Shown here piece after piece: positions 25,126 to 42,015 of a DNA stretch of 64,000 bases (position 1 is its first letter; each line of letters opens with the position of its first letter). The DNA is from an uncultured Planctomycetota bacterium (GTDB lineage: Bacteria; Planctomycetota; Planctomycetia; Isosphaerales; Isosphaeraceae), in contig CAVTTN010000002.1 in the NCBI GenBank assembly GCA_963737655.1, forward strand, positions 6,752,001 through 6,816,000, read 5' to 3'. Under the pieces are notes generated by a model. It did no database searches, had not been told where the DNA came from, and saw only the letters and a program-made list of their open reading frames with translations. Made by a program: the position numbers and the translations under genes.

Positions 25126-26082
25126 TCAGGGGGTGTCCAGGGGGCTGCGGACCCCGAGCGGGCCGGACTGAAGAACGTGGGTATAAATCATGGTAGTGCG
25201 AACATCTTCATGCCCCAGGAGTTCCTGGACCGTCCGGATGTCGCGCCCTTCTTCCAGGAGGTGGGTGGCGAAGCTATGGCGGAGCGTGTGGGGGCTGGCC
25301 GGCTTGACCAGGCCCGCGCGGAGGGCGGCCCGTCGCACCGCCCTCTGCAGCGCCTGCTCTCCCACGTGGTGACGGCGGACCGCCCCCGATCGCGGATCGA
25401 CCGACTTCGTCCCCGCGGGGAAGACGTACTGCCAGCCGAGCGAGCGATCCGCCTCGGGATACTTCCTCGCCAGGGCGAACGGCAGGTGGACCCGCCCGAA
25501 CCCCTGGCGGAGGTCCTGCGAATGGAGGTCCTTCACCCGGGCGACCTGGCGCCGAAGCGCCTCGACCAGCGCGACCGGGAGCACCGTCACGCGGTCCTTC
25601 TGCCCTTTGCCGTCGCGAACGACCAGGTGCTTCTGCCCGAAATCCACGTCCTTGACGCGCAAGCGGACGCATTCCATCAGCCGGAGTCCGGACCCGTAAA
25701 GCAGCCCGGCCATCAGCCCGAACGTCCCGTCGAGCTGCGCCAGAAGAGCGCGAACCTCCTGGCGAGTCAGGACCACCGGCAGCCGCTCGGGCCTCCGGGC
25801 CCTGGGCAGGTCGCCAAACTCCTCCAGAGGACGCTTCACGACCTCCCGGTAGAGGAACAACAGGGCGCTGAGTGCCTGGTTCTGGGTCGAGGCCGCCACA
25901 TTCCGATCCACCGCCAGATGGGTCAGGAAGGCCCCAACCTCCACCTCGCCCATTTCCTCGGGATGCCGCTTCTCGTGAAACAAGATGAACTGCTTCGCCC
26001 AGCGGACATAAGCATCCTCAGTGCGAAGGCTATAATGCAACGTCCGGGCAGCCTCCCGGACCCGGTCCAGCAGCATCGACAT
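25126..26082 (-). CDS. intI: Integron integrase
   Basis: [31 protein letters not shown], IntI-specific insert ([10 protein letters not shown]...WQYVFP...RRHH), [21 protein letters not shown]. Confidence 0.98.
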
Positions 26083-26239: not shown

Positions 26240-26282
26240 TCGGGGATTCTGCGTCACTTTCGATGTCTACTTCATGTTAGGC
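26240..26282 (+). other. attI site (core GTTAGGC at 26276-26282; left limit approximate)
   Basis: First GTTRRRY after intI with no attC stem upstream; cassette 1 starts here. Confidence 0.8.
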
Positions 26283-26613: not shown

Positions 26614-26978
26614 GGCTGACTCACGGGTCATTCGCAAGGTCTGATGGCAGCGTGCGACGTCGCCGGGGGCCCGGTCGGTCCCGTGCTTCGAGCGTCGTCG
26701 CCGCCGTGTCATCGCGCATCGCCGGTGGCCTCGGTCCTCACCGCGGTGGTGTCGTTGCCGTGGGGGCTCGCGTGCGTTCGTTGCCGCGGGGGTCTTGCGT
26801 CGTGCTCACGCGCCGCCTCCCCGTGAACTCTTCGCGCCGGCGGTTCGGCATCGGTTGATACTATGTGGGCATGATCATCGATCGGCCCGCATCCCCCCCG
26901 GCCCCCGCGACGACGGGGACGGCCCGATCCGGCTCGGCGGGGCTTGCGGTCGGGCGCCCCGCCTCCGACCCGTCGCCC

Positions 26979-28331
26979 TCACGACGGCGGCGACGGCGGC
27001 GACTTCGCCACCAGCTCGTAGCCCAGCGACCTCGCCTTGCGCCGCAGCGACCGCTCCTGCTTCGCGCGCACCTCGGCCTCGTACTCCGCCAGCGACCTCG
27101 ACACGTACTCCTCGCCGTGCCTGAGCATCCGGTACACCAGCCGCGACAGCTTGTGCGCCGTCGCCGTGATCGCCCCCCGGCCGCCGATCCGGCCCTTGAT
27201 CCGCCGGTAGAACTGGCCCGTCGCCGTCGCCGTCCGGCCCGCCGCCTGCGCCGCCATCCGCAGCGCCTGACCCACCCGGTTCTTGCCCTTGCGGGGCGTG
27301 CGACGCCGCTCGGTCTTGTTGCTCCGGTCGGTCCGCGGGCAGAGGCCCAGCCAGCTGGCGAAGTGCTTCTCGCTCGGGAACCGCCCCACGTCGCCGCCGA
27401 GCTCGGCCAGGATCACCGTCGCCGTCGTCGCGTCGATCCCCTCGATGGCCGTCAGGTCCACGCCGATCGCCCGGGCCAGCTTGGCCGGGGCGTCGAACCG
27501 CACGTCGTTGGCCTTGCGGCCGCGCTTGCGGGGCCTCGCCGCGATCGGCCGGCCTTCGGAGCGGTCGGGCAGGCGGTCCAGCTCCTCGGCGATCCGGGCG
27601 TCGCACTCGTCGACCTGGCGGTGGAGGTAGTGGTACAGGTCGGACGCCTGCCTCAGGGCGAACAGGTGCTCGGGCCGCCAGGTGCCCTCCAGGGCCCGGG
27701 CGATCTCCGCCTCGTCCCGGGCGCACCGCTCGTGCCGCAGCGCGGCCAGCTTCGTGGCGTCCCGCTCGCCGGCGAGGATCGCGGCGATGATCGCCGTGCC
27801 GGTGACGCCCGTGATGCTGCTGACGACCTCGGTCAGCTTCACATTCATCTGCTCCAAAGCCTTCTGCATGTGCTGGACGTGGTGCGAGGCGTACCGCACG
27901 AGCATCTGCCGCTGCCGCCAGTAGCCGCGCAGGGCCAGGACGGCCCCGGGCGGGCGGAAGGACGGGCGGAGCAGGCCGCACGAGTGGAGGCGCTGGAGCC
28001 ACTGGCAGTCGAGCCGGTCGGTCTTGGGCCGGGCGCCGCAGTGGCTGGCCTGGCTCGGCTCGATGAGGAAGACCTCGAAGCCGCGCGATTCGAGCAGCTC
28101 GAACAGGGGGATCCAGTAGACGCCGGTGGACTCCAGGACCACCGAGGTGACGCCCTCGGCCCGGAACCAATCGGCCAGGGCGTGGAGGTCGGCCGAGCAG
28201 GCGCCGAAGGTGCGGACCCGTCCGGGCCCGACGCAGGCGACGTGGTTGTCGGAGTGGACGTCGACGGCGGCGGCGTGGGGGTGGACGACCGGCAGGGACG
28301 CGTCGGGATCGGGGGGCGTGCGGCGACTCAT
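26979..28331 (-). CDS. IS110-family transposase
   Basis: DEDD residues (AVDVH, LESTGVYW, KTDRLD); IEGID, FPSEKHFASWLGLCP...S, TATAHKLSRLVY. Confidence 0.96.
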   Translation of the reverse strand: MSRRTPPDPDASLPVVHPHAAAVDVHSDNHVACVGPGRVRTFGACSADLHALADWFRAEGVTSVVLESTGVYWIPLFELLESRGFEVFLIEPSQASHCGARPKTDRLDCQWLQRLHSCGLLRPSFRPPGAVLALRGYWRQRQMLVRYASHHVQHMQKALEQMNVKLTEVVSSITGVTGTAIIAAILAGERDATKLAALRHERCARDEAEIARALEGTWRPEHLFALRQASDLYHYLHRQVDECDARIAEELDRLPDRSEGRPIAARPRKRGRKANDVRFDAPAKLARAIGVDLTAIEGIDATTATVILAELGGDVGRFPSEKHFASWLGLCPRTDRSNKTERRRTPRKGKNRVGQALRMAAQAAGRTATATGQFYRRIKGRIGGRGAITATAHKLSRLVYRMLRHGEEYVSRSLAEYEAEVRAKQERSLRRKARSLGYELVAKSPPSPPS

Positions 28332-28540
28332 GGCGAGGGCTCCGGCGGGTGGGGGGCCAAGCCGTCGCGGGCCGAGAGGGGGTCCGGGGACGAGGTAGTC
28401 TCCCCGACGGGAACGTCGCGGGGCCGTGTTGACACGGCGCCGCGGGTCACCAATGATGGGGCCACGGCCTCTCGGGCCAAGCTAACCTGCGGGCGGCGAG
28501 CACCAGGGAGATGACGGCCGGGAGGCCCGCGGCGGCGACG
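28332..28540 (-). ncRNA. Candidate bridge/seek RNA of IS copy 1 (limits approximate)
   Basis: Non-coding region 5' of transposase; target match CTAACCT 28482-28488 and GGCGGC 28492-28497; end match TCCCCG 28401-28406; minus-strand TACGAT at 28544-28549. Confidence 0.65.
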
Positions 28541-28602
28541 CCGATCGTACCGCGCCCCGGTTCACGTCCGTCGGGGAGCGGTCGCAGGCCGCGCGGAGAG
28601 TT

Positions 28603-28698: not shown

Positions 28699-28908
28699 GG
28701 CTGACTCACGGGTCATTCGCGAGGCCCGTTCGCAGCGAAGCAAGCGACGTCGCCGGCGGCTCGGTCGGTCCCGTGCTTCGAGCGTCGTCACCGCCGTGTC
28801 GTCGAACATCGCCGCGGGCATCGGTCCTCACCGCCGCGGGTTCGTTGCCGTGGGGTCTCGCGTGCGTTCGTTGCCGTCGGGGTCTTGCGTCGTGCCTTCG
28901 CGCCGCCT

Positions 28909-29288
28909 CTTCGTGAACTCTTTGGCTGGGAACGGCCATCGACGCGCGACACTACCCCAACCCCAGGCTTTGTGGCCGGGCAGCGGCGAGGTCCGGGTAG
29001 CAAACCGACGGATTCAAGAGCGGCGGACGAGGCGCGGGCCGAGAGGGGAGTCGGTTACGTTTGCAGTCTCTTCGACGGGAACATCCCCGCGAGTCGGCTC
29101 GCGGGGCGTCGCCAATGACCGGATCACGACCTCTCGGGCCAGGCTAACCTACGGGCAGGGAGCACCAAGGTGGAGACGGCCGGGAGGCCCGCGCCACACT
29201 CAGGCTACGCCGCGCCGGGTCGGCGGGCAAGTCGTCCCCGACCCCCGTTCACGCCCCGTCGGGAGCGGACGAAGGCCGCAGGATGGTT
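28909..29288 (-). mobile_element. 380-bp non-autonomous IS110-like mini-element M1 in attC3
   Basis: CTTCGTGAACTC...GGATGGTT between GCCT and AAC; homologous to IS non-coding region. Confidence 0.92.
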
Positions 29289-29384
29289 AACCTTGCGCTG
29301 CAGCGGACCCGGCCACGGGCCGCGTTCTTTGTTCTTTCACGCTCACAGGTCCGTGGACCGGTCCGCTGAGCTTTGGCGTTAGGC
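29289..29384 (+). repeat. attC3 (downstream part)
   Basis: AACC...GTTAGGC. Confidence 0.9.
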
Positions 29385-29408
29385 GTCTTCGCAGCGGAGG
29401 GGCACGCG

Positions 29409-29855
29409 GTGGGGATCACTCCGGCGACGCGGAAGCCGGTCCACCTCCTGACGGCTGCCGATCTCGCGGCGTTCCCGGTCTGGGAGTACGCCGACGATGA
29501 GGAGTCCGTCGAGGGTCGGGATGAGACCTGGATCCGCCCTGTCCCCGTCGAAGTCATGCCTTCCCGGAGCTATGCCATCGTCGCGGCGGACTTCGAGGCT
29601 GCTTGCGGTCGTCGCTTCCAGGGGTATGTCTTCGTCTCCACGTTGGAGGGCGCCCCCGACGCATGCCAGGGCGTCATCTGGTCAGGTTCGTCGGGCCTCT
29701 TCGTCGCTAACCCGGAGGCTGTCGTCTACAAGGGATCGCGGGCTGAGTTGCTCGCAGGGCTGGGCGTCGGCGAGCATGAGTTGTTCCCCCTGTCCTTCCG
29801 TCCGCGCGTTCCGGTCGAGGGTATGCAAGGGCTCTGGTCAGGCGTGTTACCCTAA
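29409..29855 (+). CDS. Cassette 4 hypothetical protein
   Basis: GGAGG RBS, GTG start, fills cassette, stop just before attC. Confidence 0.75.
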   Translation: MGITPATRKPVHLLTAADLAAFPVWEYADDEESVEGRDETWIRPVPVEVMPSRSYAIVAADFEAACGRRFQGYVFVSTLEGAPDACQGVIWSGSSGLFVANPEAVVYKGSRAELLAGLGVGEHELFPLSFRPRVPVEGMQGLWSGVLP

Positions 29856-29856
29856 C

Positions 29857-29958
29857 GCCTAACCCGGCGCTGCAGCGGACCCCGGCCACGGGCCGCGCTT
29901 TCTCTTCTGTTGTAGCTCAGTGGTCCGTGGCCGGGTCCGCTGAGCTTGGTCGTTAGGC
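29857..29958 (+). repeat. attC4 (intact)
   Basis: GCCTAAC...GTTAGGC. Confidence 0.92.
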
Positions 29959-29977
29959 GTCAGGGGGCGATCTCGCC

Positions 29978-30421
29978 GTGAGCGTCAAAGTCCTCGCGCT
30001 CGACCTTGAGCGAACGCTGATCGATGACGCCCTGAGCGCCCGCCCACGGCCCGGCCTCCGCGATTTCCTCGCCTTCTGCGACGAGAGCTTCACGCGGGTC
30101 GCCATCTACACCACGGTCGAGGAGACCGACGCCCGCGAAGTCATTGATGAACTGGCCCGTGAGGGCCACGTCACTCAGGCCCTGCTAGCGCGGCTGGAGT
30201 ACATCGATTGGTCGGGCGAGCACAAGGATCTTGCGTATGTGCCCGGCGTCGCCGCGGAAGAGGTGGTGCTCGTCGATGACGACGCCGGTTGGATCCGGCC
30301 GGATCAGCGAGGGAGCTGGGTCGCCATCAAGCCCTGGGACGGCGGGCCGGACGGCGAGTTGCCCCGCATCAGGTCAATACTCCAGGCCCTGGTCGCCGGT
30401 GTGGCCGCGCCGGATGCCTAA
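29978..30421 (+). CDS. Cassette 5 HAD/NIF-type phosphatase-like protein
   Basis: LALDLERTL, RPGLRDFL, KDL, VVLVDD; stop is the attC TAA. Confidence 0.8.
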   Translation: MSVKVLALDLERTLIDDALSARPRPGLRDFLAFCDESFTRVAIYTTVEETDAREVIDELAREGHVTQALLARLEYIDWSGEHKDLAYVPGVAAEEVVLVDDDAGWIRPDQRGSWVAIKPWDGGPDGELPRIRSILQALVAGVAAPDA

Positions 30422-30515
30422 CCTCGCGCTGCAGCGGACCCGGCCCGCCGCGGCGTTTTCTGGTATCATCAAGCCTTCACTTGGCGGTCCGGTCCGCTGA
30501 GCTTTGGCGTTAGGC
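30416..30515 (+). repeat. attC5 (intact)
   Basis: GCCTAAC...GTTAGGC. Confidence 0.92.
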
Positions 30516-30557
30516 GGCTCGACCTCAACCGTGGACGACGTGCACGATGACCCCTCG

Positions 30558-30977
30558 ATGGAGATACGCTCCTGCCACGGCAGGCGTGGCCTCCGCTTCC
30601 ACAGCCGGCGCGGAGACTACTTCCACGCGAGCGTCGAGGGTGACGGCCCGAGTGCCTCCGTGCGGGTCTGGGGCTACACCGATTGCCACCTCCTCGTCGA
30701 CCTCTTCGAGTCGATCGCCCACGACTGGCGCGGCTGGCAAGGCGAGCGTTCCTGGTCCTCCATCGAGGATGAGTTCCGCATCGGTGCCACCACCGACAAG
30801 GCGGGCCATGTCACCCTCTCGGTTGTGCTTGCTCACTGTGACGGGATGGACGACTGGCGGCTCTCGGTGCCGGTCTTCACCGAGGCCGGACAGCTCGAAA
30901 AGATCGCCCGAGAGGTCGCTCGCTTCTTCTCCGGCGATGCGAGCGGCCCCCCGCCCGCAGATGCCGCCTCTTCGTGA
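30558..30977 (+). CDS. Cassette 6 protein, DUF6228-like
   Basis: LFESIAHDWRGWQGERSWSSIE...GHVTL; stop lies inside M2; family recalled, not searched. Confidence 0.7.
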   Translation: MEIRSCHGRRGLRFHSRRGDYFHASVEGDGPSASVRVWGYTDCHLLVDLFESIAHDWRGWQGERSWSSIEDEFRIGATTDKAGHVTLSVVLAHCDGMDDWRLSVPVFTEAGQLEKIAREVARFFSGDASGPPPADAASS

Positions 30978-31349
30978 ACTCTTTGGCTGGGAACGGCCAT
31001 CGACGCGCGACACTACCCCAACCCCAGGCTTTGTGGCCGGGCAGCGGCGAGGTCCGGGTAGCAAACCGACGGATTCAAGAGCGGCGGACGAGGCGCGGGC
31101 CGAGAGGGGAGTCGGTTACGTTTGCAGTCTCTTCGACGGGAACATCCCCGCGAGTCGGCTCGCGGGGCGTCGCCAATGACCGGATCACGACCTCTCGGGC
31201 CAGGCTAACCTACGGGCAGGGAGCACCAAGGTGGAGACGGCCGGGAGGCCCGCGCCACACTCAGGCTACGCCGCGCCGGGTCGGCGGGCAAGTCGTCCCC
31301 GACCCCCGTTCACGCCCCGTCGGGAGCGGACGAAGGCCGCAGGATGGTT
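30970..31349 (-). mobile_element. Mini-element M2 in attC6
   Basis: Same 380-bp sequence and insertion point. Confidence 0.92.
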
Positions 31350-31447
31350 AACCTCGCGCTGCAGCGGACCCCGGCCACGGGCCGCGCCTTCTGCGTCTTC
31401 GTAACTCGCTGGTCCGTGGCCGGGTCCGCTGAGCTTGGTCGTTAGGC
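31350..31447 (+). repeat. attC6 (downstream part)
   Basis: AACC...GTTAGGC. Confidence 0.9.
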
Positions 31448-31464
31448 GGCGGGAGGCTCCCGCG

Positions 31465-31785
31465 ATGGAATGGCCCGAACCGTGGTGCGATGTCGCCGAT
31501 CTCGGCCCCGACTTCGCGGCTACGTTCGAGCGCGTCCTGGTGCGCGAGGTCGCGAGGGGCCATCCGCTCCACGGCATCACGGTCGCAGCGGTCGGCAAGC
31601 GCGACGGCACCGACGACGTGCTATTTCGGCTGCTCGACGGCTCCGGGCGTGTTGCTGCCGTGCATCTGACCTGGACGCGCTCACCTCCCGAACGGCCACC
31701 CTGGCCGGCAACCGAACTATTCGCCAATTTCGAGGCGTTTGCCCGGCATCAGATGCAACCCGACCACGAGGAATACGTGACGTAG
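31465..31785 (+). CDS. Cassette 7 hypothetical protein
   Basis: GGAGG RBS; MEWPEPW...REVARGHPL...DDVLF...VHLTW. Confidence 0.78.
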   Translation: MEWPEPWCDVADLGPDFAATFERVLVREVARGHPLHGITVAAVGKRDGTDDVLFRLLDGSGRVAAVHLTWTRSPPERPPWPATELFANFEAFARHQMQPDHEEYVT

Positions 31786-31807
31786 CGGCGGGCACAGAAC
31801 GCCGCCT

Positions 31808-32187
31808 CTTCGTGAACTCTTTGGCTGGGAACGGCCATCGACGCGCGACACTACCCCAACCCCAGGCTTTGTGGCCGGGCAGCGGCGAGGTCCGGGTAGC
31901 AAACCGACGGATTCAAGAGCGGCGGACGAGGCGCGGGCCGAGAGGGGAGTCGGTTACGCTTGCAGTCTCTTCGACGGGAACATCCCCGCGAGTCGGCTCG
32001 CGGGGCGTCGCCAATGACCGGATCACGACCTCTCGGGCCAGGCTAACCTACGGGCAGGGAGCACCAAGGTGGAGACGGCCGGGAGGCCCGCGCCACACTC
32101 AGGCTACGCCGCGCCGGGTCGGCGGGCAAGTCGTCCCCGACCCCCGTTCACGCCCCGTCGGGAGCGGACGAAGGCCGCAGGATGGTT
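31808..32187 (-). mobile_element. Mini-element M3 in attC7
   Basis: Same 380-bp sequence (C allele). Confidence 0.92.
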
Positions 32188-32282
32188 AACCTCGCGCTGC
32201 AGCGGACCCGGCCCGCCGCGGCGATTTTTCTGCTATCATGGCCCTTCTCGGCGGGCCGGTCCGCTGAGCTTTGGCGTTAGGC
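32188..32282 (+). repeat. attC7 (downstream part)
   Basis: AACC...GTTAGGC. Confidence 0.9.
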
Positions 32283-32299
32283 GGCTCGGAGGTCTGCAA

Positions 32300-32566
32300 G
32301 TGCCACGGCTTCGGTTCACTCGTGCAGAAGCTGAGGCCGAAGCCATACGATTGGCCACAGAGTTCGTCGCCGCGATGCCTGGCACTGAGTCCGCCCGATG
32401 CATCGGTGCCTCCGCCGACCCCTTCACGTCGAGAAGTACAAGCAGCAAGCATCCCGTCATCTGGGCCGTTGGTTTCGTCTTTCACCCACCCGAAGTCGTG
32501 ATGGACGGCGGCGAGTTGTTTGTCGGCGTTAACATCGAAACCAAGGCCGTAACAGCACATGAATAA
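32300..32566 (+). CDS. Cassette 8 hypothetical protein
   Basis: GGAGG RBS, GTG start, fills cassette. Confidence 0.7.
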   Translation: MPRLRFTRAEAEAEAIRLATEFVAAMPGTESARCIGASADPFTSRSTSSKHPVIWAVGFVFHPPEVVMDGGELFVGVNIETKAVTAHE

Positions 32567-32583
32567 CCGCCGTGCGACCGCCT

Positions 32584-34367
32584 CCCCGTGAACTCTTCGC
32601 GCCGGCGGTTCGGCATCGGTTGATACTATGTGGGCATGATCATCGATCGGCCCGCATCCCCCCCGGCCCCCGCGACGACGGGGACGGCCCGATCCGGCTC
32701 GGCGGGGCTTGCGGTCGGGCGCCCCGCCTCCGACCCGTCGCCCTCACGACGGCGGCGACGGCGGCGACTTCGCCACCAGCTCGTAGCCCAGCGACCTCGC
32801 CTTGCGCCGCAGCGACCGCTCCTGCTTCGCGCGCACCTCGGCCTCGTACTCCGCCAGCGACCTCGACACGTACTCCTCGCCGTGCCTGAGCATCCGGTAC
32901 ACCAGCCGCGACAGCTTGTGCGCCGTCGCCGTGATCGCCCCCCGGCCGCCGATCCGGCCCTTGATCCGCCGGTAGAACTGGCCCGTCGCCGTCGCCGTCC
33001 GGCCCGCCGCCTGCGCCGCCATCCGCAGCGCCTGACCCACCCGGTTCTTGCCCTTGCGGGGCGTGCGACGCCGCTCGGTCTTGTTGCTCCGGTCGGTCCG
33101 CGGGCAGAGGCCCAGCCAGCTGGCGAAGTGCTTCTCGCTCGGGAACCGCCCCACGTCGCCGCCGAGCTCGGCCAGGATCACCGTCGCCGTCGTCGCGTCG
33201 ATCCCCTCGATGGCCGTCAGGTCCACGCCGATCGCCCGGGCCAGCTTGGCCGGGGCGTCGAACCGCACGTCGTTGGCCTTGCGGCCGCGCTTGCGGGGCC
33301 TCGCCGCGATCGGCCGGCCTTCGGAGCGGTCGGGCAGGCGGTCCAGCTCCTCGGCGATCCGGGCGTCGCACTCGTCGACCTGGCGGTGGAGGTAGTGGTA
33401 CAGGTCGGACGCCTGCCTCAGGGCGAACAGGTGCTCGGGCCGCCAGGTGCCCTCCAGGGCCCGGGCGATCTCCGCCTCGTCCCGGGCGCACCGCTCGTGC
33501 CGCAGCGCGGCCAGCTTCGTGGCGTCCCGCTCGCCGGCGAGGATCGCGGCGATGATCGCCGTGCCGGTGACGCCCGTGATGCTGCTGACGACCTCGGTCA
33601 GCTTCACATTCATCTGCTCCAAAGCCTTCTGCATGTGCTGGACGTGGTGCGAGGCGTACCGCACGAGCATCTGCCGCTGCCGCCAGTAGCCGCGCAGGGC
33701 CAGGACGGCCCCGGGCGGGCGGAAGGACGGGCGGAGCAGGCCGCACGAGTGGAGGCGCTGGAGCCACTGGCAGTCGAGCCGGTCGGTCTTGGGCCGGGCG
33801 CCGCAGTGGCTGGCCTGGCTCGGCTCGATGAGGAAGACCTCGAAGCCGCGCGATTCGAGCAGCTCGAACAGGGGGATCCAGTAGACGCCGGTGGACTCCA
33901 GGACCACCGAGGTGACGCCCTCGGCCCGGAACCAATCGGCCAGGGCGTGGAGGTCGGCCGAGCAGGCGCCGAAGGTGCGGACCCGTCCGGGCCCGACGCA
34001 GGCGACGTGGTTGTCGGAGTGGACGTCGACGGCGGCGGCGTGGGGGTGGACGACCGGCAGGGACGCGTCGGGATCGGGGGGCGTGCGGCGACTCATGGCG
34101 AGGGCTCCGGCGGGTGGGGGGCCAAGCCGTCGCGGGCCGAGAGGGGGTCCGGGGACGAGGTAGTCTCCCCGACGGGAACGTCGCGGGGCCGTGTTGACAC
34201 GGCGCCGCGGGTCACCAATGATGGGGCCACGGCCTCTCGGGCCAAGCTAACCTGCGGGCGGCGAGCACCAGGGAGATGACGGCCGGGAGGCCCGCGGCGG
34301 CGACGCCGATCGTACCGCGCCCCGGTTCACGTCCGTCGGGGAGCGGTCGCAGGCCGCGCGGAGAGTT
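32584..34367 (-). mobile_element. IS110-family element copy 2 (1784 bp) in attC8
   Basis: Same length and ends as copy 1, identical translation. Confidence 0.95.
32744..34096 (-). CDS. IS110-family transposase
   Basis: Identical protein to 26979-28331. Confidence 0.96.
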   Translation of the reverse strand: MSRRTPPDPDASLPVVHPHAAAVDVHSDNHVACVGPGRVRTFGACSADLHALADWFRAEGVTSVVLESTGVYWIPLFELLESRGFEVFLIEPSQASHCGARPKTDRLDCQWLQRLHSCGLLRPSFRPPGAVLALRGYWRQRQMLVRYASHHVQHMQKALEQMNVKLTEVVSSITGVTGTAIIAAILAGERDATKLAALRHERCARDEAEIARALEGTWRPEHLFALRQASDLYHYLHRQVDECDARIAEELDRLPDRSEGRPIAARPRKRGRKANDVRFDAPAKLARAIGVDLTAIEGIDATTATVILAELGGDVGRFPSEKHFASWLGLCPRTDRSNKTERRRTPRKGKNRVGQALRMAAQAAGRTATATGQFYRRIKGRIGGRGAITATAHKLSRLVYRMLRHGEEYVSRSLAEYEAEVRAKQERSLRRKARSLGYELVAKSPPSPPS

Positions 34368-34463
34368 AACCTTGCGCTGCAGCGGACCCGGCCCGCCGCG
34401 GCGGTTTCTGGTAACATCAAGCCTTCACTCGGCGGGCCGGTCCGCTGAGCTTGGTCGTTAGGC
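34368..34463 (+). repeat. attC8 (downstream part)
   Basis: AACC...GTTAGGC. Confidence 0.9.
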
Positions 34464-34654
34464 GGCTCGGCAACCGGTCGAGCCGGGGAGGGGGATGCGA
34501 TGCCCGTTCGGCCGTTCGCGCCTCGTCGCCGTGCCGGTCGTCGCGTCGCCGTGCCGGTCGTCGCGTCGCCGTCGGCCGCGCCCCGCGTCGTCGCCGCCCG
34601 GGGTGGCGCGCGTGGTCGCCGCCGGCGGTCGTGCCCCGCGCGGTCGCGCCGCCT

Positions 34655-35034
34655 CTTCGTGAACTCTTTGGCTGGGAACGGCCATCGACGCGCGACACTA
34701 CCCCAACCCCAGGCTTTGTGGCCGGGCAGCGGCGAGGTCCGGGTAGCAAACCGACGGATTCAAGAGCGGCGGACGAGGCGCGGGCCGAGAGGGGAGTCGG
34801 TTACGTTTGCAGTCTCTTCGACGGGAACATCCCCGCGAGTCGGCTCGCGGGGCGTCGCCAATGACCGGATCACGACCTCTCGGGCCAGGCTAACCTACGG
34901 GCAGGGAGCACCAAGGTGGAGACGGCCGGGAGGCCCGCGCCACACTCAGGCTACGCCGCGCCGGGTCGGCGGGCAAGTCGTCCCCGACCCCCGTTCACGC
35001 CCCGTCGGGAGCGGACGAAGGCCGCAGGATGGTT
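34655..35034 (-). mobile_element. Mini-element M4 in attC9
   Basis: Same 380-bp sequence (T allele). Confidence 0.92.
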
Positions 35035-35129
35035 AACCTCGCGCTGCAGCGGACCCCACCCGCCGCATCGGTTTCTGGTAGATTCAAGGTCGCTCGTGCG
35101 GGTGGGTCCGCTGAGCTTGGCCGTTAGGC
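35035..35129 (+). repeat. attC9 (downstream part)
   Basis: AACC...GTTAGGC. Confidence 0.9.
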
Positions 35130-35360
35130 GGCTCAGGAGTCGAAGCCTTCGGTCGTGCTCGTCGTCGGCCTCGCCGGTCGCGCCTCGGCTCGACGACGCC
35201 ATCGGTCGGGCCCCTGGAGTCGGCCTCGGCGGTGGTGCGCGTCGTCGCCCTCGCCGGCCGCGCCCCCGAGGTCGGGCCCGTCGGCCGGCGCCCCCTTGCC
35301 AACGCCGTCGGTCCGTGCCAGGATCGTCGGTGTCGGCGCGTGGGGCGTCGCCGGGGCGCC

Positions 35361-35460
35361 GCCTAACCCGGCGCTGCAGCGGACCCGGCCCGCGGTCGAC
35401 GATCACTCTCCTCTCAATCTCGCCGGGCGCGGGCCGGTCCGCTGAGCTTTGTCGTTAGGC
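35361..35460 (+). repeat. attC10 (intact, same as attC1)
   Basis: GCCTAAC...GTTAGGC. Confidence 0.92.
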
Positions 35461-35485
35461 GTATTAGGTCGATCGGAGGCTCTGG

Positions 35486-35896
35486 ATGCGCAGTAGAGTC
35501 CGCTATGTCAGTGGTTTGCTATCGCTGTCCGTGCTGATCTTTACCTCGTGCAGCCCGGAGCGACCGGCGGGCAGCGAGGCGGACGCGTGGCCATCCGACC
35601 AAGAGATCCTCGCCTACCTCGATGGCAAGACGATTTTCGAGCCCACGCCTGCCTCATCGGAGAAGGGAGGTAGTGTACCCCCGAAATCCTTCTTGCTGAA
35701 GGCAGGCAACATTTCCTCCTTGGAAGTGAAGAAGTCGGGGGTTGCTGTCTCGGGCGAGCCTTGGACGACGCCGATCCATTTCATCCTCGACGAGGGGGGG
35801 CGTAAATATGCCGTTGATGCCAGCGTCGATCACCGGAAAGTCGATAATAAACGGGCCTTCTTCGGGCTCAAGGCCGAGCGCATCGCTGAGCAGTGA
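35486..35896 (+). CDS. Cassette 11 putative lipoprotein
   Basis: GGAGG RBS; signal peptide ending LIFTSC. Confidence 0.78.
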   Translation: MRSRVRYVSGLLSLSVLIFTSCSPERPAGSEADAWPSDQEILAYLDGKTIFEPTPASSEKGGSVPPKSFLLKAGNISSLEVKKSGVAVSGEPWTTPIHFILDEGGRKYAVDASVDHRKVDNKRAFFGLKAERIAEQ

Positions 35897-35897
35897 C

Positions 35898-35998
35898 GCC
35901 TAACCTCGCGCTGCAGCGGACCCCGGCCACGGGCCGCGCTCCCTCTTCCCTCAAGCTCACTGGTCCGTGGCCGGGTCCGCTGAGCTTTGGCGTTAGGC
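35898..35998 (+). repeat. attC11 (intact)
   Basis: GCCTAAC...GTTAGGC. Confidence 0.92.
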
Positions 35999-36014
35999 GG
36001 CAGAGGAGATTGGG

Positions 36015-36545
36015 ATGACCACCTCACCCCGTGACCGCATGCGGATGATCGTCGGCGATATCACGACACTAGCCGTCGACGCCGTCGTCACGGCCGCCAA
36101 TGAGTCCCTCCTCGGCGGCGGGGGAGTCGATGGCGCCATCCACCGAGCCGCCGGCCCCGGGTTGCTCGACGAGTGCCGCACCCTGGGGATCTGCAACGAG
36201 GGCGAGGCGAAGATCAGCGGCGCCTATCGCCTGCCCGCCAAATACATCATCCATACCGTCGGGCCGGTCTGGGAGGGCGGCCACTACGATGAGGTCGGCA
36301 CCTTGCGGCGGTGCTACAGGGCCTGCCTGGAATTGGCGGAGGGGCGCGGCGTCGAGTCGATCGCCTTCCCATGCGTCGCCACGGGCGTCTACGAGTTCCC
36401 GAAGGACCTGGCCTGCGAGGTCGCCGTCGACGCCGTGCGCGAATGGCTGTCGGACCACGACCTCCCGAAGCAGGTGGTCTTCTGCTGCTTCGAGGAGTCG
36501 GATGCCGCGCTGTACCGTGACCGCCTCTCCGCGGCCATCGCCTAA
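36015..36545 (+). CDS. Cassette 12 macrodomain protein (YmdB-like ADP-ribose hydrolase)
   Basis: GDIT, AANESLLGGGGVDGAIHRAAG, IIHTVGP, SIAFPCVATGVY. Confidence 0.93.
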   Translation: MTTSPRDRMRMIVGDITTLAVDAVVTAANESLLGGGGVDGAIHRAAGPGLLDECRTLGICNEGEAKISGAYRLPAKYIIHTVGPVWEGGHYDEVGTLRRCYRACLELAEGRGVESIAFPCVATGVYEFPKDLACEVAVDAVREWLSDHDLPKQVVFCCFEESDAALYRDRLSAAIA

Positions 36546-36638
36546 CCTGGCGCTGCAGCGGACCCGGCCCGCCGCGGTAGTTTCCGTGCTATCATCGGTC
36601 TGCTCGGCGGGCCGGTCCGCTGAGCTTGGTCGTTAGGC
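36540..36638 (+). repeat. attC12 (intact)
   Basis: GCCTAAC...GTTAGGC. Confidence 0.92.
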
Positions 36639-36661
36639 TCCGAAGTCGGAAGGTGAGTGCG

Positions 36662-37528
36662 ATGCAACAAGCTTCACAACCAAACGCGATGCAGCAACCC
36701 ATAAAGGAGTTGCTCAAGGCGATAGCCGAACAGTCGAATCCGAAGCAACTCAGGGAAGCCTTATTCGAAAAGCGGTTGCTGGCGCGGGCCTTCGCCATCT
36801 GCCCGGATGCGGAACAAGCCGCGAAGTTAACGGACATCGTGTTCAAGCGACTCAGCGACTTGGATAAACAAGTTGAATTGGCACGGGCTGAATGGGACGA
36901 ATTCAAGAACAAGGCATGCACAGACTGGAAGAGGGTCCGAGCGGAGATCGAACACGAGAATCTGCTCATCAATCACCGTTTGGGATGGTTATTTACCTCA
37001 CAGATTTTCCTGCTCGGAGGTTTTGCGGCGGTCTTTCAGGCTTCTCTCAAGGAGAACCTACTCACCAGTTCGCTCCCAGTCCAGGTTGTATTATTAGCGA
37101 TATCAGTCGTCGCCGTTTCAATTTGTGCATTTGTGACTGCTTCTGTCGATGCAGCTCATAAACAGATTGAATTCTTGGAGAATTGGTGGTTCGCTCACTA
37201 CCTGAGCAAAAAACTGAAAATGATGGATATCTTCTGCGTCGAAAAATTGACAGATCACCCTCCAATCAACGGTATTTTTGATGAATGGTTGTACACTATC
37301 CTAAGTACGAAATGGATGCCAGTACCGATCGCTCTAGGCTGGCTCGCCTTGATGTCTGCAGTATTCTTTGAGAAGATTTTGAAGATCGAGCAGCCTGTTG
37401 TCCCAACGGTTGCCTCGACCACCGTCGTGTTTGGGCTGGGTGTCGGGCTCTTCTATTTTGCGACGTTGCGGCGCAAGCGTCCGAATCGCAAAGTTGGTTC
37501 CTGGAAAGAGCCCGCCGCCTCTTCGTGA
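36662..37528 (+). CDS. Cassette 13 low-GC membrane protein (about 4 TM helices)
   Basis: Helical N-terminus, EHENLLINHRLGWLFTSQ then hydrophobic segments; stop inside M5. Confidence 0.8.
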   Translation: MQQASQPNAMQQPIKELLKAIAEQSNPKQLREALFEKRLLARAFAICPDAEQAAKLTDIVFKRLSDLDKQVELARAEWDEFKNKACTDWKRVRAEIEHENLLINHRLGWLFTSQIFLLGGFAAVFQASLKENLLTSSLPVQVVLLAISVVAVSICAFVTASVDAAHKQIEFLENWWFAHYLSKKLKMMDIFCVEKLTDHPPINGIFDEWLYTILSTKWMPVPIALGWLALMSAVFFEKILKIEQPVVPTVASTTVVFGLGVGLFYFATLRRKRPNRKVGSWKEPAASS

Positions 37529-37900
37529 ACTCTTTGGCTGGGAACGGCCATCGACGCGCGACACTACCCCAACCCCAGGCTTTGTGGCCGGGCAGCGGCG
37601 AGGTCCGGGTAGCAAACCGACGGATTCAAGAGCGGCGGACGAGGCGCGGGCCGAGAGGGGAGTCGGTTACGCTTGCAGTCTCTTCGACGGGAACATCCCC
37701 GCGAGTCGGCTCGCGGGGCGTCGCCAATGACCGGATCACGACCTCTCGGGCCAGGCTAACCTACGGGCAGGGAGCACCAAGGTGGAGACGGCCGGGAGGC
37801 CCGCGCCACACTCAGGCTACGCCGCGCCGGGTCGGCGGGCAAGTCGTCCCCGACCCCCGTTCACGCCCCGTCGGGAGCGGACGAAGGCCGCAGGATGGTT
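37521..37900 (-). mobile_element. Mini-element M5 in attC13
   Basis: Same 380-bp sequence (C allele). Confidence 0.92.
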
Positions 37901-37997
37901 AACCTCGCGCTGCAGCGGACCCCGGCCACGGGTTACGTTTTCTCTTCTCCCAAGCTCACCGGTCCGTGGCCGGGTCCGCTGAGCTTGGTCGTTAGGC
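37901..37997 (+). repeat. attC13 (downstream part)
   Basis: AACC...GTTAGGC. Confidence 0.9.
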
Positions 37998-38021
37998 GGC
38001 TTTCCCCGGTGAGGCCGACTC

Positions 38022-38420
38022 GTGCGCATCAGCATCCCACGCCTCCCGGTCGCGCTCGTCATCCGAGCGGATCGGCGGCCCCGACGGCCGATCAAGCCGA
38101 GGTTCACCCTTCGTGGCATGATGCTTGCCGTGCTCGTCGTCGGGCTGGTGCTCGCGCTGTCGCTCCACGCGGCGAGGTTGCAACGGGCTGGCAACGACCA
38201 TGCGGCGCGAGCGGTCCTGCTCGCCCCGGGCGCCGGCACGATGCCTCCGGTCGTGGGCTGGCACAACGCGAGGGCGAACGCCCTCTTCGCGGCCGCCTGG
38301 CGCTGGCACATGGCGGTCACCACGCTCGTTGTCAGCTCGGCCGCCTTGGGGTGTATCGCGGCCATCGGCCGGTGCGTCGCTTCTGCGCCCCGGCCCTACG
38401 GTGGGTCGGAAGGCGCCTGA
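38022..38420 (+). CDS. Cassette 14 small membrane protein
   Basis: PRFTLRGMMLAVLVVGLVLAL; stop in attC. Confidence 0.65.
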   Translation: MRISIPRLPVALVIRADRRPRRPIKPRFTLRGMMLAVLVVGLVLALSLHAARLQRAGNDHAARAVLLAPGAGTMPPVVGWHNARANALFAAAWRWHMAVTTLVVSSAALGCIAAIGRCVASAPRPYGGSEGA

Positions 38421-38512
38421 CCTCGCGCTGCAGCGGACCCCGCACCGCCGCGGCGCTTTCTCTGCTACCATGTCGTTGTTCGGCGGTGCGGGTCCGCTCA
38501 GCTTGGGCGTTA
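38415..38512 (+). repeat. attC14 (GCCTGAC variant; R' box split by MITE)
   Basis: Conserved arms; GTTA then insertion then TAGGC. Confidence 0.8.
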
Positions 38513-38658
38513 TTGCCCTTCAGGTTGTCCGGTTCCGGACGATCCCCGGGTGGCCGGGGGCTCGTCCGCGAGACCCCGGTCCCGCGGGGTCGGCCGACCG
38601 GGGTCTCGCCGGCGAGCCCCCGGCCACCCGGACAGGAACCCAACAATCTGAAGGTCAA
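38513..38658. mobile_element. 146-bp palindromic MITE with TA duplication
   Basis: TTGCCCTTCAGGTTGT...ACAATCTGAAGGTCAA flanked by TA at 38511-38512 and 38659-38660. Confidence 0.8.
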
Positions 38659-38685
38659 TAGGCACACTCACACACGGCATCACGC

Positions 38686-39147
38686 ATGAGCACAGGAAAC
38701 ACAAAAGCCGTCAGAGATTCCGAGACGTGCTGGGAACTTGATGAAGAGTTCATGTTGTATGCCGCGACCATTCCAGACCCGCCGAAGGCGGGTGCGGCCA
38801 CGACGGTGAGGCTCACGCATCGGAGCTCCTGCGGCCCGTTCGACTTCGCTGAATTTTTCGTTCGTGTAGGAAACTCGGCCAAGTCGAACGCCCCGCGCGA
38901 TTCGGATTCGACGACAGATTGGATTCAGGCGCGATTGGTCGAGGAGTTGGTCACCGTCGCTGAGGAAGAGATGCATCGTTCAGAGGCGCAAGAGCCTTTC
39001 GATGACGAGACACTTTGGATCGGGACTTACGAGGCCGACTTAATCTTTCCCGTCGGGCAGAGTTCCATCGAGATCAAGATCGTCAGCCAAGAGCCAGAGA
39101 TGCTCGGGTCATTCGTGCTGACGGACTGGGAGGTGACGGTTGGATGA
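38686..39147 (+). CDS. Cassette 15 acidic hypothetical protein
   Basis: Fills cassette. Confidence 0.75.
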   Translation: MSTGNTKAVRDSETCWELDEEFMLYAATIPDPPKAGAATTVRLTHRSSCGPFDFAEFFVRVGNSAKSNAPRDSDSTTDWIQARLVEELVTVAEEEMHRSEAQEPFDDETLWIGTYEADLIFPVGQSSIEIKIVSQEPEMLGSFVLTDWEVTVG

Positions 39148-39158
39148 GCCGTGCGCCT

Positions 39159-39538
39159 CTTCGTGAACTCTTTGGCTGGGAACGGCCATCGACGCGCGAC
39201 ACTACCCCAACCCCAGGCTTTGTGGCCGGGCAGCGGCGAGGTCCGGGTAGCAAACCGACGGATTCAAGAGCGGCGGACGAGGCGCGGGCCGAGAGGGGAG
39301 TCGGTTACGCTTGCAGTCTCTTCGACGGGAACATCCCCGCGAGTCGGCTCGCGGGGCGTCGCCAATGACCGGATCACGACCTCTCGGGCCAGGCTAACCT
39401 ACGGGCAGGGAGCACCAAGGTGGAGACGGCCGGGAGGCCCGCGCCACACTCAGGCTACGCCGCGCCGGGTCGGCGGGCAAGTCGTCCCCGACCCCCGTTC
39501 ACGCCCCGTCGGGAGCGGACGAAGGCCGCAGGATGGTT
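39159..39538 (-). mobile_element. Mini-element M6 in attC15
   Basis: Same 380-bp sequence (C allele). Confidence 0.92.
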
Positions 39539-39634
39539 AACCTCGCGCTGCAGCGGACCCCACACCGCCGCGGCGCTTTTTCTGCTATCATGCCTGTCTC
39601 GGCGGTGCGGGTCCGCTGAGCTTGGTCGTTAGGC
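39539..39634 (+). repeat. attC15 (downstream part)
   Basis: AACC...GTTAGGC. Confidence 0.9.
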
Positions 39635-39644
39635 GGCTCTCCCT

Positions 39645-39953
39645 TTGGGCGTCGAGGATCATACGTTCTCTGTGCGAATCGTCTCCATCGAGCGACTCCG
39701 CCTGCGGAATGGGTCGTCGCTGCTCCTCCTTGGCCTCGACATGACGTACCTTCAAGCGGCGCGGTCTGGTTGTCCGGGTGCCAAGGCACGCGTCGTATCC
39801 GGCGATGCCGTCACGCCAGTCCGGGGCACCCTGGCCTTTCAGCAACCACTCGACAGCCTCGCGACCGTGAGCGTATCTTCACCTGAGTCGATCATCGTCG
39901 CTGTCGGCGACACGTTCGAGTTCGAGCGAGCCGACCCCGCCGCCTCCCCGTGA
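39645..39953 (+). CDS. Cassette 16 hypothetical protein
   Basis: Fills cassette; stop inside IS end; weak start. Confidence 0.5.
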   Translation: MGVEDHTFSVRIVSIERLRLRNGSSLLLLGLDMTYLQAARSGCPGAKARVVSGDAVTPVRGTLAFQQPLDSLATVSVSSPESIIVAVGDTFEFERADPAASP

Positions 39954-40593
39954 ACTCTTCGCGCCGGCGGTTCGGCATCGGTTGATACTATGTGGGCGTG
40001 ATCATCGATCGGCCCGCATCCCCCCCGGCCCCCGCGACGACGGGGACGGCCCGATCCGGCTCGGCGGGGCTTGCGGTCGGGCGCCCCGCCTCCGACCCGT
40101 CGCCCTCACGACGGCGGCGACGGCGGCGACTTCGCCACCAGCTCGTAGCCCAGCGACCTCGCCTTGCGCCGCAGCGAACGCTCCTGCTTCCGCCTCACCT
40201 CCGCCTCGTACTCCGCCAGCGACCTCGACACGTACTCCTCGCCGTGCCTGAGCAGCCGGTACACCAGCCGCGACAGCTTGTGCGCCGTCGCCGTGATCGC
40301 CCCGCGGCCGCCGATCCGGCCCTTGATCCGCCGGGGGGTCAAAAAGGGGACGGGGGGTCAAAAAGGGGACGGAGCGAATAAATTCAGCTTTTTGCATTTT
40401 GCCGCGTCTCATCCAGGCCGAACTTATTCGCTCCGTCCCCTTTTCGGCCCCAAGCTAACCTGCGGGCGGCGAGCACCAGGGAAGGGACGGCCGGGAGGCT
40501 CGCGACGGCGTGCCCCAGCGTATCGCGCCCGGTGGTCGGGGCCACCCCCGGTTCACGTCCGTCGGGGAGCGGTCGGAGACGGCGCGGAGAGTT
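39946..40593 (-). mobile_element. Internally deleted, diverged IS110 copy 3 in attC16
   Basis: Both ends and transposase 3' end (40106-40332) kept; middle replaced by 40333-40450. Confidence 0.9.
40333..40444. repeat. REP/MITE-like inverted repeat at the deletion junction
   Basis: AAAAGGGGACGGAGCGAATAA 40361-40381 and exact complement 40424-40444; 19-nt tandem 40333-40370. Confidence 0.8.
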
Positions 40594-40689
40594 AACCTGG
40601 CGCGGCAGCGGACCCCGCACCACCGCGACGCCTCTTGTGTTATCATGGCCCACTCGGCGGAGCGGGTCCGCTGAGCTTTGGTATCAGGC
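40594..40689 (+). repeat. attC16 (degenerate R', ATCAGGC)
   Basis: Arms conserved, GTT mutated. Confidence 0.75.
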
Positions 40690-40715
40690 GGCTCGCACTT
40701 CCGAGGGGCACACCG

Positions 40716-41066
40716 ATGACCTTGCCTGGTCGCCTCCGCCCTCGTTGGACCATCGGGCGCTGCATGATCGGCGTCGCGGTCTCAGCCCTTGCGCTCTCCG
40801 GGCCGTTGCAATTCCTCCTCGTGGCCCTGACTGTCTCCTTCATGCTCCTCATGAGGCTCGGCTTTTCCTGGGTGAAGGCGCTGATGGCGGTCGAAGTGAT
40901 GGGCGCCATCGCGATCGCCCTCGGACTGCCGTTCTTCGTCACCGCCCTACGCTCCAATTGTGGCATGCCCGCGTCTGGGCCGACTAACCTCGCGGTGCGG
41001 GGGACCCGTCCCGCCGTTGTGCGTTCTCCGCTCTCATGGCGATCGCTCGGCGGGCCGGTCCGCTGA
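40716..41066 (+). CDS. Cassette 17 small membrane protein (reads into attC)
   Basis: GAGG RBS; PRWTIGRCMIGVAVSAL and hydrophobic helices. Confidence 0.6.
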   Translation: MTLPGRLRPRWTIGRCMIGVAVSALALSGPLQFLLVALTVSFMLLMRLGFSWVKALMAVEVMGAIAIALGLPFFVTALRSNCGMPASGPTNLAVRGTRPAVVRSPLSWRSLGGPVR

Positions 41067-41081
41067 GCGTTCGCGTTCGGC
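40982..41081 (+). repeat. attC17 (degenerate)
   Basis: GACTAAC...GGTCCGCTGAGC...GTTCGGC. Confidence 0.7.
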
Positions 41082-41096
41082 CCCACGGAGGCGGTG

Positions 41097-41432
41097 ATGC
41101 AGAAGGCTGGTGTCTGGCTTCTGACGATCATCGGCCTGGTCGGGCTGTTGGTGGCCCTCAGCTTCGAAGGGCATGGCGCGGGCGCCTCGACCCCTCAGCC
41201 GGGAGGACCGGTGCACGTGGCGCCGGTCGTCTGGCCAGTCGGCCTGCCCGATACCTGGCTGGAGTGGGAGAGGCCCGGATACCTGTTGGGGCAGGAGGGC
41301 CGCCCCCATGTCCACTTCGCCGGCGTGTATGTCCTCAGATGGTCGTTCGGAATCCTCGTCGCGAGCGCCTGCGCCCTGGGCTGCGCGTCGATTCTGGCTC
41401 GCCGCGGGCAATCCGGCCGGATCGGGGGCTAA
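41097..41432 (+). CDS. Cassette 18 small membrane protein
   Basis: GGAGG RBS; two TM helices; stop is attC TAA. Confidence 0.7.
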   Translation: MQKAGVWLLTIIGLVGLLVALSFEGHGAGASTPQPGGPVHVAPVVWPVGLPDTWLEWERPGYLLGQEGRPHVHFAGVYVLRWSFGILVASACALGCASILARRGQSGRIGG

Positions 41433-41526
41433 CCTCGCGCTGCTGCGGACCCCGCACCGCCGCGCCCCCTTCTGCGAGATCTTCGTCGATTCGGCGGTGA
41501 GGGTCCGATGAGCTTTGTCGTTAGGC
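41427..41526 (+). repeat. attC18 (slightly degenerate)
   Basis: GGCTAAC...GTTAGGC. Confidence 0.8.
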
Positions 41527-41558
41527 GGCGGGGGGATCCACCCAGGGGGGAACCGAGG

Positions 41559-41966
41559 GTGGTGCGGCGATCCTGGCGGAGTTTGCGGGCGATTCTGGTC
41601 GCCATAGCCGTCGCGGCCGTCGCGATGAACGGCCTGCGTGAACTTCCCACGTTGCGAGATGGCTATCTCCTTCGGCAAGGGGCGGGTCGTGCCCGGCGTG
41701 ATGTCGAGTTGATCGGCGCGGCCTCGGGTCTCGATTCCGCCGCCGGTCGCAGGGCAGTGCTCAATGCCCATCAGGCCCAAGTCCGAGCCAATGCGTTCTG
41801 GCGGGAGAATCTTCCCGGACTGGCCGTCCTGGCGTGCGGCGCGGCGGCCGGTCTCCGGCTCCTGGGGCTGGCCTTCGGGGGCCTCTCGCCAGCCTTCGAC
41901 AGGCGAATCGGCGCGGTCGAACATCGCCGGAGTCCACCGCCTGACCTCTCGCGACCGCTCTCGTAA
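41559..41966 (+). CDS. Cassette 19 small membrane protein
   Basis: SLRAILVAIAVAAVAM and second hydrophobic helix. Confidence 0.55.
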   Translation: MVRRSWRSLRAILVAIAVAAVAMNGLRELPTLRDGYLLRQGAGRARRDVELIGAASGLDSAAGRRAVLNAHQAQVRANAFWRENLPGLAVLACGAAAGLRLLGLAFGGLSPAFDRRIGAVEHRRSPPPDLSRPLS

Positions 41967-42015
41967 AATCGAACGTCGCTCGGGCGGGTGGGTCCGCTGA
42001 GCCTGGTCGTTAGGC
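41939..42015 (+). repeat. attC19 (left arm partly deleted)
   Basis: GCCTGAC...GGTCCGCTGAGCC..GTTAGGC. Confidence 0.7.

Follow-up and report, generated by a model that had tools for sequence, protein, structure and literature searches.

An IS110-family insertion sequence and a transposase-less mini element, each with a predicted bridge RNA, at attC sites of a Planctomycetota cassette array

The window analyzed here (the whole stretch of DNA, 64,000 nucleotides) is G000:C2:6752001-6816000, that is, part of contig C2 (CAVTTN010000002.1) of the source genome G000, an uncultured Planctomycetota bacterium of the family Isosphaeraceae (GCA_963737655.1); positions without a prefix are window positions. 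Two kinds of element interrupt attC sites of its integron cassette array, a 1784-bp insertion sequence (IS) with a 450-aa IS110-family recombinase and a 380-bp element without a transposase, hereafter the mini. The overall reading, which is considered probable, is that an RNA-steered IS110 lineage and its mini insert at GCC|TAAC of attC and that the in-frame TGA which they bring to cassette open reading frames (ORFs) is an older motif of the element end. The recombinase, steered by a bridge RNA predicted upstream of its gene, would insert the IS; the same recombinase, acting in trans and loaded by the mini's own predicted RNA, would insert the mini at the same spot. The TGA, part of an older GTGAAC/GTTCAC repeat, would fall two codons after the split stop, making insertion cheap for the cassette protein, and the occupied attC would retain a 4-bp core and fold less often into its recombinogenic form, leaving cassettes slowed rather than freely carried by the integron integrase IntI. 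The lasting interest would lie in an IS110 lineage independently retargeted to attC and in a mini that guides itself.

The genome holds 8 IS copies (2 truncated) and 28 minis, 36 in all, of which 3 IS copies and 6 minis lie in the window as follows.
26818..28601, minus strand: full IS copy 1, 1784 bp, between GCC and TAAC of attC
32583..34366, minus strand: full IS copy 2, identical to copy 1
39945..40592, minus strand: internally deleted IS, 648 bp, both ends kept, with an unrelated palindromic repeat inside; supplies the TGA at 39951-39953
28908..29287, minus strand: mini, 380 bp
30969..31348, minus strand: mini, 380 bp, no transposase; TGA at 30975-30977
31807..32186, minus strand: mini; the upstream ORF already stops at 31785
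34654..35033, minus strand: mini in a 198-bp cassette
37520..37899, minus strand: mini; supplies the TGA at 37526-37528
39158..39537, minus strand: mini; the upstream ORF already stops at 39147

All 36 copies are antisense to the array and sit between the 3-nt R'' arm and TAAC, in one register and one orientation. The arm before the element reads GCC in 34/36 copies, GAC in one, and TCC in one, and every copy finishes GT+TAAC at its other end; among the occupied attC sites, one breaks off after ~12 nt and another is interrupted by a different repeat. The integron itself is marked by two features.
25126..26082, minus strand: integron integrase gene intI, 318 aa (TIGR02249, 475 bits against a cutoff of 265; tblastn)
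26276..26282, plus strand: attI crossover GTTAGGC, start of the array (sequence; homologous attI regions elsewhere in the genome)
The array extends from attI to ~42020. This is the single full integron integrase found by tblastn in the whole genome, and a hidden Markov model (HMM) made from the genome's own attC-like sites gave 87 attC-like matches in several clusters.

The features of the IS that bear on its classification and targeting are listed for copy 2.
32744..34096, minus strand: IS110 recombinase, 450 aa (PF01548 and PF02371; NF033542, 253 bits against a cutoff of 140; IS621 in PDB, E=1.5e-10)
34120..34310, minus strand: predicted bridge/seek RNA core, upstream of tnp (alignment, consensus fold, guide covariation)
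34247-34253, minus strand: target guide AGGTTAG
34165-34179, minus strand: donor-guide segment with CGGGGA
Placement in the IS110 family follows from a DEDD RuvC-like domain (residues in VDVHSD, LESTG, and KTDRLD) and a Transposase_20 domain with the conserved serine (GLCPRTDRSN), from sequence-specific insertion in one orientation with no target duplication beyond the core, and from a non-coding region in which target and donor guides are recognized by covariation. The longer non-coding end, which holds the predicted RNA, is upstream of tnp as in the IS110 group (270 nt upstream against 161 nt downstream), but the guide order of that group, bottom-strand match before top-strand complement, was not found, the predicted top-strand guide lying 5' of AGGTTA. 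The top-strand signal is modest, and the element is filed in the IS110 family only, with no subgroup. SN instead of SG follows the conserved serine in 50/104 related proteins.

Relatives were taken from 79 genome loci and at least 121 metagenome stretches, the latter found with a pattern chosen from the RNA motif of the clade, and were parsed with an HMM. At least 104 long protein matches fell into 81 clusters at 95%, and those of ~60% identity or more were examined; relatives in the plasmid collection reached <=50% identity and carried generic annotation. The upstream non-coding end is conserved throughout the clade, and its consensus fold shows two-sided changes in 21/41 pairs (40 sequences). 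Rfam at the gathering threshold gave 0 matches over 26200-42100. Both target guides, a variable top-strand guide and the AGGTTA segment, fall in one internal loop of the fold. AGGTTA is the attC bottom strand up to the shared one-base core (A; the T of TAAC). With guides labeled after Durrant 2024 (PMC11208160), the left target guide (LTG) was compared with the left target in 124 metagenome modules among the matches listed: 79 were exact and 18 had one mismatch, the remainder comprising 17 without a match, 9 too short, and 1 out of range. The left donor guide (LDG) equals the last 6 nt of the element end in 49/52 elements (shuffles: mean 17, max 26), a figure inflated by relatedness, with one of the misses being the window's IS, whose end was mis-picked by the script.

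Occupancy in the genome follows the guide: perfect sites (GCC-TAACCT) are occupied in 34/48 cases and one-mismatch sites in 0/21, although a single cassette accounts for 10 of these 21, which are therefore not independent. One cassette lacks an element in the window (35486-35896) but carries one at C2:1971064. No difference is claimed between IS and mini in preference at guide position -7 (3/8 versus 2/28, p=0.06). Because a copy in genome G002 stands at a matching linear target, with no attC-like arm in the flank examined, the target is suggested to be recognized by sequence rather than as a hairpin. One ORF-less cassette (26277-26611 and 35123-35458 in the window; 10 genome copies) has an attC reading TAACCC, which mismatches the guide, and is never occupied; this attC is a possible escape variant.

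The mini keeps much of the same machinery in its predicted RNA.
31084..31268, minus strand: predicted bridge RNA core of the mini (alignment, consensus fold)
31205-31211, minus strand: target guide AGGTTAG, the same as in the IS
31129-31143, minus strand: segment with the private donor guide CGAAGA, which matches the mini's own end
This core is ~75% identical to the IS core, with stems and attC guide kept. Where the IS RNA reads CGGGGA, the mini RNA reads CGAAGA, and the mini end also reads CGAAGA; the end thus differs from the IS donor guide at 2/6 bases, and the mini RNA has the same two changes. Donor guide and end agree within each of the three minis compared, which come from three genomes or contigs. 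In one of them, a sibling mini that follows its IS in tandem at locus L001, RNA and end alike read TGAAGA through a matching C-to-T change, and the target guide is non-attC. Genome G003 has minis at attC with the same guide-end pairing (4 guide matches, one full copy at 83%) and a recombinase fragment, 78% identical. Among 401 genomes, mini DNA at full or near-full length was found in G000 and G003 only, and four more match the RNA core alone. The 11 other transposase-less RNA modules in the metagenome loci, besides two short attC-guided ones, were truncated ISs or had no clear right end and gave no convincing mini.

Lack of a transposase, two IS-like ends, and multiple copies at the target of the partner IS make the mini a miniature inverted-repeat transposable element (MITE) of the IS110 family, of the MITEPpu9 type. 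The shared target, RNA scaffold, and end repeat point to mobilization in trans by the IS recombinase. As to whose RNA would serve, the mini might be a passive deletion derivative moved by the RNA of the IS, its RNA-like sequence being a non-functional leftover. MITEPpu9, which forms transposase-dependent circles (Pares-Guillen 2025, PMC12288879), offers a precedent, but this account is judged unlikely: stems and guides have been kept at only 75% identity, the mini's guide and end depart from the IS together, and guide and end have changed together again in the L001 mini. Since mismatches between the left donor and its guide (LD-LDG) are generally poorly tolerated for IS621, according to the portion of Durrant 2024 (PMC11208160) available, the simplest reading is that the mini likely provides its own predicted RNA to the recombinase in trans. 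A bolder version, given about even chances, is that the mini is a guide-RNA parasite whose private donor code reprograms the host IS recombinase for minis only, which out-competes the IS (28 versus 8 copies), slows IntI at occupied sites, and sets up a second cassette-shuffling system that exchanges genes from one attC to another. Were this so, one bridge recombinase would be serving two orthogonal donor RNAs in nature. The mini suggests a route for non-autonomous elements where RNA recognizes the ends, namely, keeping the RNA and recoding the donor guide. Neither a mini whose donor guide has been recoded nor the coincidence of stop codons described below was found in the literature, although older papers and the supplements of Durrant 2024 and Siddiquee 2024 may mention them.

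The attC left behind by an insertion is illustrated by one site.
31349..31445, plus strand: attC behind a mini, starting TAAC; R box down to 5/7 pairs
A sequence-only reading of this DNA had proposed that the element ends in GTT and thereby leaves TAAC in front of the attC arms. TAAC is indeed present in 36/36 cases, but its AAC is target DNA and its T is the one-base core common to target and element. In element orientation, the target is GGTTA|GGC and the element starts AC and ends A, with one base shared. The first two bases are AC in 79/80 exact-match relatives (68/69 non-attC and 11/11 attC-guided, among the matches listed); because this start is common to both classes, GT before TAAC is clade-wide. 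TAAC is kept by the position of the cut and not by the element.

Watson-Crick pairs of the R box, out of 7, fall from a mean of 6.75 to 4.92 with minis (n=24) and from 6.86 to 4.14 with ISs (n=7); the outer pairs are lost and the core 4 bp (YAAC/GTTR) are kept. These 4 bp define a recombinogenic R box in the text available of Loot et al. 2017, from which the folding measure pfold was also taken; it could be computed for 26 of the 36 occupied attC sites. pfold was lower in 26/26 occupied sites, with a median drop of 10- to 107-fold depending on the flank. For bare sites, the median went from 0.74-0.78 to 0.07-0.08 when occupied, and with 10-40 nt of real flank it was 0.004-0.017 occupied versus 0.65-0.79 in the reconstructed empty sites; 21 empty sites gave 0.81-0.84. 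Because one site at pfold 1e-5 still showed low but real recombination (Loot et al. 2017, in the portion available), occupied attC sites are predicted to be weaker and slowed rather than dead. The effect of attC-targeting ISs on integron function is described as poorly tested, with immobilization suspected, in the part available of a 2024 source (PMC11616780). For this question, the genome provides occupied cassettes with empty counterparts, elements of two types, and a folding prediction in numbers.

The sequence-only reading had also made the element cargo that IntI moves with the cassette. In its full form, this would have occupied attC sites as good IntI substrates and the elements spreading mainly on excised cassettes. 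The surviving 4 bp and the residual pfold of bare sites lend it something, as does the 198-bp cassette with a mini (34463-35127), which is also found with a mini at C2:1672907, directly after an orphan attI. Both copies begin exactly at the GTTAGGC crossover, and both are followed by the same next cassette; a single base separates the two minis and a single indel the next cassettes, and each of these variants recurs in other copies. Independent insertion, gene conversion, or joint movement of a welded pair by way of the next empty attC could each account for this. Across the genome, no occupied cassette was found with a changed downstream neighbor, while empty cassettes show classic IntI shuffling, the ORF-less cassette occurring 10 times with many neighbors; this most shuffled cassette is the one never occupied. 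With the fall of pfold in flanked sites also against it, cargo movement is doubtful as the main route of spread.

Rearrangements linked to minis are bounded by minis and not by IntI crossovers. A mini-attC-body-mini unit (~1.28 kb, 5 mismatches) occurs twice in the genome with both flanks different, and the attC of the macro cassette (36543) is found again at C2:1680137 behind a mini with another body. Discordances between body and attC involve a mini in 3/3 cases and number 0 among empty-empty duplicates. It is likely, from these junctions, that recombination between identical minis puts cassette bodies and attC sites into new combinations.

The effect of insertion on cassette ORFs was followed at three occupied junctions and two empty controls.
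30504..30977, plus strand: cassette ORF, DUF6228, ends SS* (sequence)
36626..37528, plus strand: cassette ORF, no Pfam match, ends SS* (sequence)
39645..39953, plus strand: cassette ORF, no Pfam match, ends SP* (sequence)
29978..30421, plus strand: empty control cassette 5, NIF-like phosphatase, ends at the TAA of GCCTAAC
36015..36545, plus strand: empty control cassette 12, macro domain, ends at GCC-TAA-C
As the sequence-only reading had noted, cassettes 5 and 12 stop at GCC-TAA-C, the occupied junctions read GCC-TCT-TCG-TGA (mini) or GCC-TCC-CCG-TGA (IS), and the ORFs ending at 30977, 37528, and 39953 gain two residues, finishing ...A-S-S*, ...A-S-S*, and ...A-S-P*, respectively. Its statement that insertion splits the TAA of cassette ORFs applies to 3/9 occupied sites in the window and 18/36 in the genome; the rest are without an ORF of >=80 aa needing the TAA, dependence being scored on the longest ORF >=80 aa from mechanical ORF calls. 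Occupancy is the same with or without such an ORF (18/26 versus 18/25 targetable sites; Fisher p=1). Insertion is near-neutral for the protein, which is almost intact with two added residues, but probably not for the attC, which loses R-box pairs and 10-100-fold in predicted folding. An in-frame stop lies within 3 codons at 3.8% of random genomic positions, a figure against which the 36 copies count as one inherited event and not 36 trials.

The TGA motif is one arm of an inverted repeat: GTTCAC has its partner, GTGAAC, ~35 nt in from the opposite end. The repeat is 7 bp, with arms ~35 and 4 nt from the ends.
34325..34331, minus strand: IS inner arm of the end repeat, CGTGAAC in element orientation (compensatory change in locus L138)
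32587-32593: IS partner arm, contains the TGA
30973-30979: TGA-bearing arm of the mini
31308-31314: inner arm of the mini
The TGA is at the same place in 3/3 attC-confirmed clusters with an end and 37/39 others among the matches listed, leaving out 11 clusters without an end in view; of the two exceptions, L169 proved to carry a TGA-bearing end when a second method was used. To address attC in this register, a guide must end GTTA. A strict class was used, as the attC test (this genome's HMM) may miss other attC types: where the guide is unable to read as a stop on the other strand, TGA is kept in 24/24 clusters (21 guides), and where it can read as a stop, in 16/17, again among the matches listed. 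Stop-reading guides are not enriched in the clade (10/44 distinct guides, p=0.3). In the tree, the attC-guided clade (7 rows, SH-aLRT 100) is nested inside a 53-row TGA clade, outside which the ends read GTTCCT, with no stop (AAGGAAC/GTTCCTT and CAGGAAC/GTTCCTG in two outer elements). In L138, both arms have changed together, to GTTAAC inside and GTTAAT at the end, and the stop is lost though the element's own target reads TAA.

Because the TGA is common to non-attC relatives and changes with the opposite arm in L138, the ends were not shaped to repair cassettes; the TGA is best read as an older inherited inverted-repeat end motif, and its match to the cassette stop as exaptation. The repair device proposed in the sequence-only reading, here in the form that the ends evolved to restore stop and attC core and make insertion neutral, could draw on the gain of only two residues in all TAA-dependent ORFs, on a next in-frame stop at codon 31 (mini) or 19 (IS) without the TGA, other frames stopping late or never, and on the TGA of all three attC-confirmed clusters, but it is very improbable in the face of a TGA frame equally conserved in non-attC relatives (the outcome that the reading itself had named as refuting it), including every cluster whose guide cannot match a stop and the sibling mini with a non-attC guide, of the absent enrichment of stop-reading guides, of an AC start shared with non-attC relatives, and of the clade nesting and the joint arm change, and an adaptive origin of the TGA was rejected. 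As a plain instance of exaptation, the stop-codon match cautions against reading design into junctions.

Several points weigh against the overall reading of an RNA-steered lineage with an older TGA motif. The right-target (top-strand) guide covaries modestly, with z 2.5-4 along a diagonal that shifts (n=39; the sequences are related), and in the IS of the window it matches at 3/4 bases; nor does the prediction fold the donor loop cleanly. RNA expression, recombinase loading, and trans-mobilization are deduced from sequence. The metagenome pattern selected for the RNA motif of this very clade, the tree is a quick search, midpoint-rooted and without bootstrap, and the folding prediction ignores integrase binding. 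Purifying selection may also maintain the TGA within the attC clade.

Comparison with known systems draws on the available portions of the sources cited. IS1111 elements that target attC, and their seekRNAs, are already known (ISKpn4, ISPst6, ISPa21, and ISPa25; Siddiquee 2024, PMC11187229). Shared with that IS1111-attC group are an element with an RNA-guided DEDD recombinase (the RNA here being predicted) at a fixed spot near the attC 5' end, antisense (PMC3001079), and a top-strand guide before the bottom-strand guide in the predicted loop. The group differs in its downstream non-coding region and 330-350-aa transposase, against an upstream RNA and 450 aa here, and in its 11-13-bp subterminal inverted repeats at 7/3 bp, against an asymmetric 7-bp repeat; attC targeting here emerged within a clade whose other members have dozens of different targets. 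Because the attC clade is nested among non-attC relatives in the tree of the relatives collected here, the target appears to have been acquired separately from ISKpn4 and ISPst6. With the bridge recombinases of the IS110 group (IS621, ISEc21; Durrant 2024, PMC11208160), the element shares an upstream RNA, guides that covary with target and element end, DEDD and serine domains, and a short repeat flanking the donor. It differs in a one-base core against a dinucleotide core there, in a guide order reversed relative to IS110-type seekRNAs, and in SN rather than SG in much of the clade; IS621 is distant from the window recombinase (E=1.5e-10).

The closest known mini is MITEPpu9 of ISPpu9, an IS110 MITE with IS-like ends. 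Like the mini, with its predicted RNA, it is a non-autonomous IS110-family element bearing a small RNA (ssr9), found alone or in tandem behind its IS, as in L001, at the same target class (PMC12288879). In the available part of that account, Ssr9 figures as a regulator or a hitchhiker rather than a bridge RNA that brings a private donor guide, whereas the mini here has a guide covarying with its own end, and attC as its target. Group IIC-attC introns (S.ma.I2; Leon 2010, PMC3001079) also enter the bottom strand close to the 5' end of attC; joining of gene and attC by recombination between copies has been proposed for them (Leon & Roy 2009, via PMC3053210), a model that the mini-bounded rearrangements here recall, and they can carry outward promoters, where here there is promoter-like sequence. 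They differ as retrotransposing ribozymes with an unrelated mechanism.

A promoter-like sequence lies inside the IS end.
34194..34222, plus strand: TTGACA-17-AATGAT (1 found, 0.0 in shuffles)
It is antisense to the predicted RNA, points at the downstream cassettes, and is a possible outward promoter for them. Short degenerate remnants of element ends (footprints) precede attC sites at G000:C2:4298601 and 819744. A second IS110 (34% identity; G000:C2:4847047-4848546, top strand) stands at GTTA|GGC of an attI-like site, has a similar RNA scaffold with a guide-like GTGTTA, and is a possible attI/R'-targeting sibling; short related pieces occur at C2:4298466-4298510 and 1121431-1121475. One set of non-attC relatives (L006-L009, L013, L061) is flanked by near-direct repeats, 5/6 copies having a 64-133-codon open frame that ends at the junction, and this lineage may also strike stop codons. 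In L134, the 11-bp element end is found in four tandem repeats.

Copies of the attI region without an integrase gene, 84-95% identical, are present at C2 ~283.6k, 1121.5k, 1672.8k, 1969.5k, and 5884.7k, and at least three of them head cassette arrays. A 149-bp palindromic element with terminal inverted repeats and an apparent TA duplication (38512-38660; single copy in the genome) lies inside the attC R' core (GTTA|GGC). The palindromic repeat inside the truncated IS (~95-108 bp, 40335-40442) has three copies in the genome, the other two being inside the IS at C2:1680770 and splitting the attC at C2:286728.

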